This document shows positions 49,847 to 52,800 of a stretch of 64,000 nt of DNA, piece after piece. Location: assembly GCF_013315695.1 (NCBI RefSeq), contig NZ_CP054353.1. One strand, 5' to 3'. The position numbers were made by a program. The stretch's first letter is position 1. The number at the start of each line of letters is the position of its first letter. This DNA is from Escherichia coli. GTDB lineage: Bacteria; Pseudomonadota; Gammaproteobacteria; Enterobacterales; Enterobacteriaceae.

Positions 49847-52800
49847 TCAGCTATTTAAGATAGGCACGAACCAGTTCAATAGTGTCGTCAACGGATTGGC
49901 TGACTTCGCGGCTGTAGCAGTCATTTCGGTCAAACGTTTCCCGGATATGGCTTTCAAGCACTTCTGCCATCAGCCCGTTAGCCGCGCCCCGAACGGCAGC
50001 GATCTGTTGGAGTATGGCACGGCATTCGGCATCACTCTCCAGCGACCGTTCCAGAGCATCAATCTGCCCCCGAATACGACGAACTCGAGTAAGGACCTTT
50101 TTCTTCTCTTCCGGAGTACTGGGCATTTCGCACCTCATCATCTGCACGCAATATACTATAGGGGGGTATGCTATATGTCAATGCATACTCCCCTATAGTA
50201 TATAACACTGGAGAATAAAATTTATCCGGTGAATGTAGTCGGATAACAAAAAGGAAAGAGGGGCCTAATCGACAGGGAAGGCCGCCCCGGATAGCGGGCG
50301 GCAGAAGGAATTAGAATTTCCAGGTCAGATGGGCTGCAAGTTGCAGACCGTTATAATCATCGGTTGGGGTGTCGTACCACACTTTACCTGCCGTCAGCCC
50401 GAGATTAAGTTGCTCAGTCAGCGGTTGAATACGTTGCAAACTGACGCTCTTCATGCTGCCGTAGCGTGTTTCTGGCGTCCAGTCATAGGTGTAAGCGCCT
50501 GTTCCGCGGCTTAGCCATAGTTGCGTATAACCAGTGCCGCGCGGGTCATTCAGACGCACGGAAATCATATTGCTGTAACTACCACCTGCATCGCTGGAGT
50601 CATAATGGGTATAGCGGTAGCTGGAGATCACCGGGCCAGTATAGAGTGATACGCCGCCTTGCCAGGCATCGACTTCGACATCATCGTAATATTTAGTGTA
50701 GCGATAACCGGTCGTGAAAAGCGTTTTTGGCAACAGGGCCAGGTTAATATCCTGACGAAAATCCTGGCGGGCAAAGACCGGCGTATTATCCGCAAAGGCA
50801 ATACCCGTTCGGGTTGTCAGCCAGTTATTCCATTTGTACCAGACTGCACCCTGGCCGCGAGTGGCATTGAAATGTTCAGTTTCATAATCACGACGCCCCT
50901 GGGAAAGATTAAAAAGCAGCGTTGCGTTTTCAACTTTCGCCACCAGTTCAGCATACGCTAAATTACGGTTGCCATGATCGCCAGAATAATCGGTAAAATC
51001 GTAGCCCGCGGTAATGGAAGTTAACCCGGCATAAGCGGGCAATGTGCTAAAAATTGCTGCCGCTAATAACGTCCGTTTTATCATTTTAATCTCCTGTACG
51101 GATAAGTTCTTGTCGGAGTGAATAAGTTCCGGTAGGTAAATTACGTTCTACAATCACGCGCGGGCCAAGTTGCGTGTTCGGGGAAATAATTCGCCCAGGC
51201 AAAATAATAACTTGTACGCCAAGGCGTGAACGCTGTCCGATATAACAACCTAATTTATCGCATCCGGTAGCGATAATTCCCTCTGGAGTTCGAACAGACA
51301 CGGGCTGTTCATCCAGACGATGATTACTGGTACGTACTTGTGCGCCCAAATATGCCTGGTTTGCGACTACCGAGTCGGCAATAAAACATTGCGGACCAAT
51401 CGTTGCTTCCGCTTCAATAACCGCATTTTTAATTTCGGTGGCGAAACCAATTTTTACGCCATTGCTGATTATTGTGCCAGGACGAATAAACGCATAATTA
51501 CCTATCAGGCAGTTTGCGCCAATCACTACCGGACCCTGAATAACGGCACCGTGACAAATACGGGTATTCGCGCCGATAACAACTTCACCTGCAGTTTCAT
51601 CAATAATTACCTGGTCTGCAATCTGAATATTTTTCTCTTTAACATTAAGCTTCAGAAAGTTTTTCAGTTCCTGTGACAGAAGGTTGGGAATAAGCGGTTG
51701 ACGCTTCCACCAGTGCGGAATAGCGGGTGGGTTTGTCGCGCTGAGGTTCGCGTCCAGTAAAAAAGGCAATAAGTCCATAAATAATCCAGATGGCATAAGC
51801 TAATAATACATACACAACGGAAAGCGGCGCTAAAGGCACCAACAACCAGCAACGATGAAACCAGGCGCTAAAAGCACCAATAACACAAACTACGCCGACC
51901 CAGATAAGCGGAAACATTGCCAACACCACACTATGCGGCCCGGTGGTGATGAATTCATTAAACCAGGTAGTGAGATAAATCCCAACGCCATAAAGCACAA
52001 CCAACAGCATAGGAAATATACTGAAGATACCGAAGCGGCTAAATAAAAGTCTTTTATGCAGGCGCATACAGACCGCGTAGCCCACAATCCAACGCCGCCA
52101 GCGACGCCATTCCTCACGCGGGCTGTTGCATTCCTGTGGGTATACGATGCAGCGATTCGCCTGCCGAATACGATAGCCGTTTGCCACCAATGTCCAGGTG
52201 AGATCAAGGTCTTCGACTTTAGTACGATCAGAGAAACCGAACTTACGCAATACATCAGTACGGAACATCCCGCAGGCACCGCTGATAATAAACGGTGCGC
52301 CGCCCAGGAGCTGCTGTAGCGTGCGCTTCATAACAATCATCGGCAACTTTACGGTCGCGCGGATGTGCGGTAACAGACCCGCGCCTTTCAACGCAGTAGA
52401 GGGAATGCCGCCTACGGCATCAGCACCGCGCTCTATTTCTGCCAGCATATAGCCCATTCCGTCTTGATCGGGCGGAACATAGGTGTCGGCATCACTTAAA
52501 AAAACCTGGTCGCAGGTGGCGTAATTGAGGCCATTCATCAGCGCACCACCTTTACCGGTATTTTTTTGCGTGACGGCAATAAAGCGGTCGCCCCATTTGC
52601 GTTTGACTTCCGCCATGACCGCTTCGGTATTGTCCGTGGAGCCGTCGTTAACGCAAATTACCCGGCAAAAATAAGGGTTACGCAGCAGATTATCCAGTGA
52701 CTGCGCCAGACACGGGCCTTCGTTATAAGCAGGTATAATGGCGTCAATACAGCCTTTTTTTTGGCTGGGCTTACGCCTTAACGTACTCAGGAACCATAGC

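Follow-up and report, generated by a model that had tools for sequence, protein, structure and literature searches.

Two predicted FrmR sites bracketing the -35 of the frmRAB promoter as the probable basis of the long inverted repeat upstream of Escherichia coli frmR

The closest described system is the frm promoter (Pfrm) of E. coli K-12, which has the same two-site inverted-repeat arrangement as the locus examined here (Denby et al. 2016; PMC5146963). FrmR bound a K-12 Pfrm fragment with a Kd of about 220 nM, as against about 3600 nM for a control promoter, and formaldehyde both abolished the binding and dissociated the pre-formed complex (PMC5146963). The protein represses transcription in vitro and in vivo and senses formaldehyde through Pro2-Cys35 methylene bridges; the same authors proposed that either two tetramers occupy the promoter or one tetramer bridges both sites (PMC5146963). 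In a 2024 study, the two ATACN9GTAT sites moved into the constitutive J23100 promoter conferred FrmR-dependent repression (PMC11127321). A truncated PfrmR that kept both sites lost repression in that study, a hint that upstream DNA or FrmR dosage also contributes. In Salmonella, mutation of one flanking repeat of the FrmR site abolished binding (PMC5016687), and two tetramers load a single 33-bp site (PMC4528141). The type 1 sites of the CsoR/RcnR family, to which these repressors belong, have been defined previously (PMC3902906). Loss-of-function alleles of frmR were reported in 2026 in a paper that also describes plasmid-borne formaldehyde resistance and reports no clinical operator mutations (PMC13029678).

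The sequence analysed here, referred to as the window, is a 64-kb stretch of an E. coli chromosome. The frm genes lie on its minus strand. The product of frmR (49851..50126), a 91-residue CsoR/RcnR family protein, matches PF02583 (E = 2e-23), is annotated as FrmR in RefSeq and is identical to K-12 FrmR at 90 of 91 residues; the sensory residues Pro2 and Cys35 are present and the single change is G31S. It is followed by frmA (48707..49816), encoding S-(hydroxymethyl)glutathione dehydrogenase and regulated by Pfrm, and by the last gene of the operon, frmB (fghA, 47782..48615), encoding S-formylglutathione hydrolase. The gene upstream of frmR, on the same strand, is yaiO (50311-51084). The window corresponds to 4754176-4818175 of the bloodstream isolate AF3 (NZ_OZ547117.1), with 100% identity over 49851-50320, the part that was compared, and the frm region is present in almost every complete E. 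coli genome.

Several features of the surrounding sequence were also recorded. Relative to K-12, the intergenic region between yaiO and frmR has a 3-nt homopolymer indel at 50258-50268, where K-12 has a C10 run and the window reads GCCCCTC. A GC-rich hairpin, GCCGCCC-GCTATCC-GGGGCGGC, lies on the minus strand at 50283-50304, right after the yaiO stop codon; it lacks a T-run and received no call in the terminator scan, and it may mark the end of the yaiO transcript. On the far side of yaiO, yaiX (51086-51796), which encodes an LbetaH-domain acyltransferase, is uninterrupted here, whereas the K-12 copy is split by IS2A. An IS2 element lies at the start of the window and three copies of IS1A are found at 10391-11088, 13863-14560 and 31550-32247. 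The genes beside the IS1A copies are annotated as truncated or damaged: ecpC lacks its N-terminus, ecpE is frameshifted, and there are an oxidoreductase fragment and a lacA remnant (32264-32608).

A repeat search of the window identified an inverted repeat at 50151-50203 with 21-nt arms, complementary at 20 of 21 positions (95%), and an 11-nt spacer. The left arm (50151-50171) reads ATATACTATAGGGGGGTATGC and the right arm (50183-50203) reads GCATACTCCCCTATAGTATAT. The element lies 25-77 nt upstream of frmR, and its arms and spacer together make up the whole Pfrm operator-promoter core. When the window was scanned with our own script for 21-nt arms that have no more than one mismatch and are separated by 20 nt or less, this was the sole inverted repeat returned. 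No repeat of this kind appeared in 200 dinucleotide-preserving shuffles of the window, and with 16-nt arms the shuffles gave a mean of 0.03 repeats per window; the palindrome is far beyond chance. The second-best inverted repeat, at 31429-31469 (CTGTAAATATCCTGACATTAATAATGCCAGGATATTTACAG), has ykgG about 107 nt upstream of it and an IS1 end about 25 nt away.

An earlier sequence-only reading had described a long inverted repeat directly upstream of frmR, at 50151-50204, and this was borne out: the arms are 21 nt long and frmR has its ATG at 50126 (minus strand). The start coordinate was exact, but the repeat stops one base earlier than given, at 50203. The TATGC/GCATA palindrome that had been called central does occur; it forms the inner ends of the arms, however, and the true unpaired centre is 50172-50182, which contains the -35 hexamer on the frmR strand.

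The frmR strand of the operator region reads TTATATACTATAGGGGAGTATGCATTGACATATAGCATACCCCCCTATAGTATATTGCGTGCAGATGATGAGGTGCGAAATG. By the definition of the K-12 sites (PMC5146963), a frmR-proximal FrmR site is predicted at 50153..50169 on the minus strand, with the sequence ATACCCCCCTATAGTAT, in which ATAC-N9-GTAT encloses a C6 tract. This site begins 43 nt upstream of the frmR ATG and overlaps the -10 hexamer. A distal site, ATACTATAGGGGAGTAT, is predicted on the same strand at 50185..50201 and is an inverted copy of the proximal one. The two ATAC-N9-GTAT sites are thus in inverted orientation, 32 bp apart from centre to centre, or about three helical turns. On the frmR strand, the spacer of the palindrome carries a perfect consensus -35 hexamer, TTGACA (50176..50181), 3 bp beyond the end of the distal site, and the -10 hexamer TAGTAT (50153..50158) follows after 17 nt, within the proximal site. 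TTGACA-17-TAGTAT matches the consensus at 10 of 12 positions and was the only sigma-70-like promoter found by the promoter scan in 49700-50500. A transcription start at 50146..50148 on the minus strand is predicted from these hexamers; it places the centre of the palindrome (50177) at -29 to -31, compared with the published value of -29 (PMC5146963). The predicted leader is roughly 20 nt long and includes a Shine-Dalgarno-like GAGGTG (50131..50136, minus strand), read from the sequence 4 nt upstream of the frmR ATG.

Type 1 operators of the CsoR/RcnR family have a single G/C tract of 3-8 bases (PMC3902906), and one is found in each site: G6 at 50161-50166 in the proximal site and C4 at 50190-50193 in the distal site, the latter being C6 in most E. 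coli. Both sites also have the flanking half-sites of that type, as ATAC-N9-GTAT, with the wider consensus ATACT-N7-AGTAT, and both overlap the promoter of an operon that encodes a PF02583 regulator. Moreover, as in the description of Denby et al. (2016), two 9-bp tracts rich in GC, each lying between ATAC and GTAT, form a larger inverted repeat, and the position upstream of frmR-frmA-frmB and next to yaiO is orthologous. The proposal that the repeat is the FrmR operator of the formaldehyde-inducible frmRAB operon is supported by the identity of the three genes, by the K-12 work (PMC5146963) and by the cross-species footprinting described below. It is not one long operator, however, since the palindrome consists of two separate 17-bp sites with the -35 hexamer between them.

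The published assignment of the E. coli sites is based on sequence inspection with modelling, fragment binding, a sort-seq study and the site transplant (PMC11127321). When the element was compared with the published FrmR site, as had been suggested, the K-12 arrangement was found to be the same (PMC5146963), but no classical footprint of E. coli FrmR was found in the literature surveyed. In the sort-seq study, Rohlhill et al. (2017) reportedly identified a pair of 19-bp repressor sites, the first upstream of the -35 and the second overlapping the -10, an arrangement that matches the anatomy seen here.

Two further candidates in the window were considered and rejected. For a divergent promoter on the plus strand, the distal site offers a mirrored -10-like sequence, but there is no -35 hexamer and the promoter scan gave no call. 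Apart from the two operator sites, the window contains a single exact ATAC-N9-GTAT, ATACACTTCGGCGGTAT at 16469-16485, which was examined as another FrmR target; it falls within an aldo/keto reductase gene and lacks a C/G tract, and its occurrence does not exceed chance expectation.

The conservation of the site was analysed in a scan of one genome per species, which yielded 80 loci with FrmR relatives (52-99% identity) from gamma-, beta- and alpha-proteobacteria. Directly downstream of frmR lies frmA, usually with frmB, in 76 of these loci. ATAC-N9-GTAT, with at most one mismatch, was present between -130 and +20 of the frmR start in 75 of the 80 loci, at a density of 8.7 per kb in this interval vs. 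0.17 per kb over the remainder of those loci. The commonest starting point of the site is 43-45 nt upstream of the frmR start codon. Positions outside the search constraint were conserved at the frmR loci as well, giving ATACT-CCCC-YAT-AGTAT-A and hence a site in which a 5-bp dyad (ATACT/AGTAT) surrounds a 7-bp core. This cross-species footprinting provides independent support for the FrmR site.

Three loci of the scan, from Klebsiella grimontii, a Citrobacter freundii MAG and Maribrevibacterium harenarium, encode an FrmR that is 91% identical to that of E. coli and carry a ATACTCCGAYGCAGTAT site 44 nt upstream of frmR. In these loci frmA and frmB were absent within 2.5 kb; in K. grimontii the region about 690 nt downstream instead holds an iron-type alcohol dehydrogenase-like ORF of 383 aa.

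A second site, 32-35 bp upstream of the first, was found in a limited set of taxa among the 80 loci, namely Escherichia, Pantoea, Edwardsiella, one Enterobacter sp., Aeromonas, Providencia, Morganella, Serratia, Erwinia and Deefgea, and in none of the others; it is thus confined to Enterobacterales plus Aeromonas and Deefgea. In most two-site loci the spacer again opens with TTGAC, at the same offset. The half-sites are invariant throughout these loci and the distal site keeps a fixed place, 3 bp upstream of the -35, whereas the complementarity of the core arms ranges from 9/9 in Escherichia and Edwardsiella to 5/9 in Serratia, 3/9 in Deefgea and 2/9 in Erwinia. Since the half-sites stay constant while arm pairing varies, the conserved feature is two protein sites bracketing the -35. 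In Erwinia endophytica the sites, about 46-95 nt upstream of frmR, are direct rather than inverted; they are 33 bp apart with TTGAC between them, and their cores are identical at 7 of 9 positions and complementary at 2 of 9. These direct repeats indicate that it is the two sites that matter, not a hairpin, and that the palindrome as such is not required. The long palindrome of Escherichia results from the duplication of an asymmetric site in inverted orientation.

The frm promoter regions of an Edwardsiella anguillarum plasmid, Enterobacter sp. 10-1 and Morganella psychrotolerans are near-identical, with identical pairs of FrmR sites, although the genera are unrelated and one copy is on a plasmid. 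This pattern suggests a mobile frmRAB cassette that carries its own operator, which would be relevant to plasmid-borne formaldehyde resistance (PMC13029678).

Variation within E. coli was evaluated by counting exact matches to the 76-mer 50140-50215 and its alleles in 5,426 complete genomes. The allele with a perfect 21-nt palindrome, which has C at 50189, had 2,859 exact matches and the K-12 allele 978. The allele of the window had only two, AF3 and MSB1_4I. The one mismatch between the arms is thus a rare SNP: at 50189 the plus strand of the window has T where most E. coli have C, which changes the distal G6 tract to GGGGAG. It was also the only variant seen inside a 17-bp site; in ten sampled variant alleles and K-12, every difference fell in the spacer or the flanks and none in either site. 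The pattern in this small sample fits purifying selection on the sites. With the SNP, the distal site reads ATACTCCCCTATAGTAT on the plus strand; the identical sequence forms the only site in several Brucella and related loci and the proximal one in E. albertii. As this sequence occurs naturally in those organisms, the SNP is expected to be tolerated.

The FrmR substitution G31S (codon 31, at 50036 in the window) is four residues from the sensory Cys35. An exact 76-mer around it was found in about 7 of the 5,426 genomes, both carriers of the operator SNP among them. Residue 31 is variable in orthologues (G, N, T, E, D or S), so that G31S is probably tolerated. The possibility was considered that the SNP at 50189 and G31S together shift the set-point of frmRAB repression in this bloodstream-isolate lineage, and it was judged improbable. 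If it were true, tolerance of formaldehyde or methenamine would be altered by a cis/trans route, distinct from that of the frmR loss-of-function alleles (PMC13029678). The two changes are minor leads, in a setting where frmRAB de-repression has recently been linked to methenamine and formaldehyde resistance in urinary isolates.

In one genome, E. coli FJ_Ec_21 (NZ_CP143627.1; positions 31-106 of locus L092), the arms enclose a 15-bp spacer whose orientation is opposite to that in the K-12 allele. As a consequence the -35 TTGACA points away from frmR, as does, in effect, the entire mirrored promoter. The inversion could reflect a palindrome-mediated template switch or an assembly artefact. Programmed promoter inversion was rejected as a general mechanism because the flipped allele occurs in essentially one genome.

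It is conceivable that the proximal site alone is the working operator and that the distal arm is accessory or dispensable, either tightening repression or having no role. The distribution of the sites is in keeping with this, the proximal site being found in three proteobacterial classes (75/80 loci) and the distal one in Enterobacterales, Aeromonas and Deefgea; furthermore, Mesocricetibacter combines an E. coli-like promoter geometry with a single site, and the strain of the window tolerates a SNP that breaks the distal tract. However, the distal half-sites do not vary in any two-site genus, their position relative to the -35 is fixed, the sampled E. coli variants leave the distal site untouched save for that of the window itself, and both sites were present in the transplant that conferred FrmR repression (PMC11127321). 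A sole proximal operator is thus considered unlikely, and a distal site with an accessory function would be a refinement of the two-site model, not a replacement for it. The two repressor sites reportedly found by Rohlhill et al. (2017) also count against a sole proximal operator.

Whether the palindrome acts instead as a nucleic-acid structure, either an RNA hairpin that ends or attenuates read-through from yaiO or a DNA cruciform, was also considered. Its predicted RNA fold has an energy of -34.8 kcal/mol (z = -7.1), yaiO lies upstream on the same strand, the cores are complementary at 7-9 of 9 positions in most two-site loci, and the one genome with an inverted spacer is what a recombinogenic palindrome might produce. 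A comparable fold would be obtained from any palindrome, however, and the energy is uninformative. There is no U-run after the stem, which is followed by UGCGUGCAG, the terminator scan was blank in 49700-50500, and the best Rfam match (23.8 bits against a gathering score of 139) is noise. The predicted start is downstream of the element, so the frmR mRNA would not contain it. Erwinia, Deefgea and Serratia have lost the arm pairing and kept ATAC/GTAT, and single-site loci have no hairpin at all; a structural role is accordingly very improbable. Even less credence is given to the idea that the sites serve another regulator, for example through cross-binding by the paralogue RcnR, which recognises TACT-G6-N-AGTA. 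The frm site does share the TACT-N7-AGTA geometry of the RcnR site, and the distal site of the window reads TACT-CCCCTAT-AGTA on the plus strand. Compared with the RcnR motif, the tract is nevertheless shorter and displaced and has no G6-N beside AGTA, and the full motif was found in neither site, the other one reading TACC-CCCCTAT-AGTA. Moreover, the site co-occurs with frmR-frmA across taxa, and published genetics and biochemistry assign the repression to FrmR.

Taken together, the palindrome is very probably the operator-promoter core of an autoregulated frmRAB operon, composed of two 17-bp CsoR/RcnR type 1 sites. In the absence of formaldehyde, tetrameric FrmR would sit on the sites and block RNA polymerase both at the -10 and immediately upstream of the -35. 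Formaldehyde would then cross-link Pro2 to Cys35 between FrmR subunits, the DNA-binding surface of the cross-linked protein would be remodelled and the DNA released, and frmR, frmA and frmB would be transcribed as a result. The anatomy of the element, its overlap with a consensus promoter and the conservation of the sites were observed directly; the base-by-base protein contacts and the stoichiometry at the double site are predictions. The allele of this strain probably behaves like that of K-12: binding, release by formaldehyde and repression were shown for the K-12 promoter and would be expected, by analogy, for the present one.

The element has already been described and is real but ordinary. 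The repressor and its chemistry are likewise published, and Pfrm is already in use as a formaldehyde biosensor part. The present analysis adds comparative support for conservation of the 17-bp site across proteobacterial classes, evidence for a lineage-specific addition of the second site and thereby of the long palindrome, and the finding that the site is almost invariant within E. coli.

The nearest relative of the element is K-12 Pfrm (PMC5146963), which has the same locus and architecture, two ATAC-N9-GTAT sites in an inverted repeat centred at about -29/-30. Over 50140-50215, 73 of 76 nt are identical between K-12 and the window, with three single-base differences. The distal tract is G6 in K-12 and the rare GGGGAG in the window; the inner edge of the arm is GAATAC in K-12 and GCATAC, the majority allele, in the window, which lengthens the arms from 19 to 21 nt; and position 50147, near the predicted start, is G in the window and A in K-12. 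The spacing of the site centres was counted here as 32 bp, whereas 31 is stated for K-12 (PMC5146963).

The frmRA operon of Salmonella Typhimurium (Osman et al. 2015, 2016; PMC4528141, PMC5016687) is controlled, like that of E. coli, by a formaldehyde-responsive FrmR. Its operator resembles the present one in having a C6 tract and T/A-rich inverted repeat flanks, and the repeat is needed for binding. The Salmonella protein, however, is only 52% identical to E. coli FrmR and polyphyletic with it, and its operator-promoter is distinct, with a single site.

The operator of E. coli RcnR in the rcnR-rcnA intergenic region (Iwig and Chivers 2009, as cited in PMC3902906 and PMC5146963) belongs to a paralogous member of the repressor family. 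It is similar in having a G/C tract, TACT/AGTA half-sites 7 bp apart and two tandem sites that overlap the promoter. The RcnR sites are 19 bp apart, whereas the frm sites are 32 bp apart and form a long palindrome. The RcnR tract is a G6 next to TACT and the frm tract a C4-6 followed by TAT, and RcnR responds to Ni/Co, in contrast to FrmR, which responds to formaldehyde.
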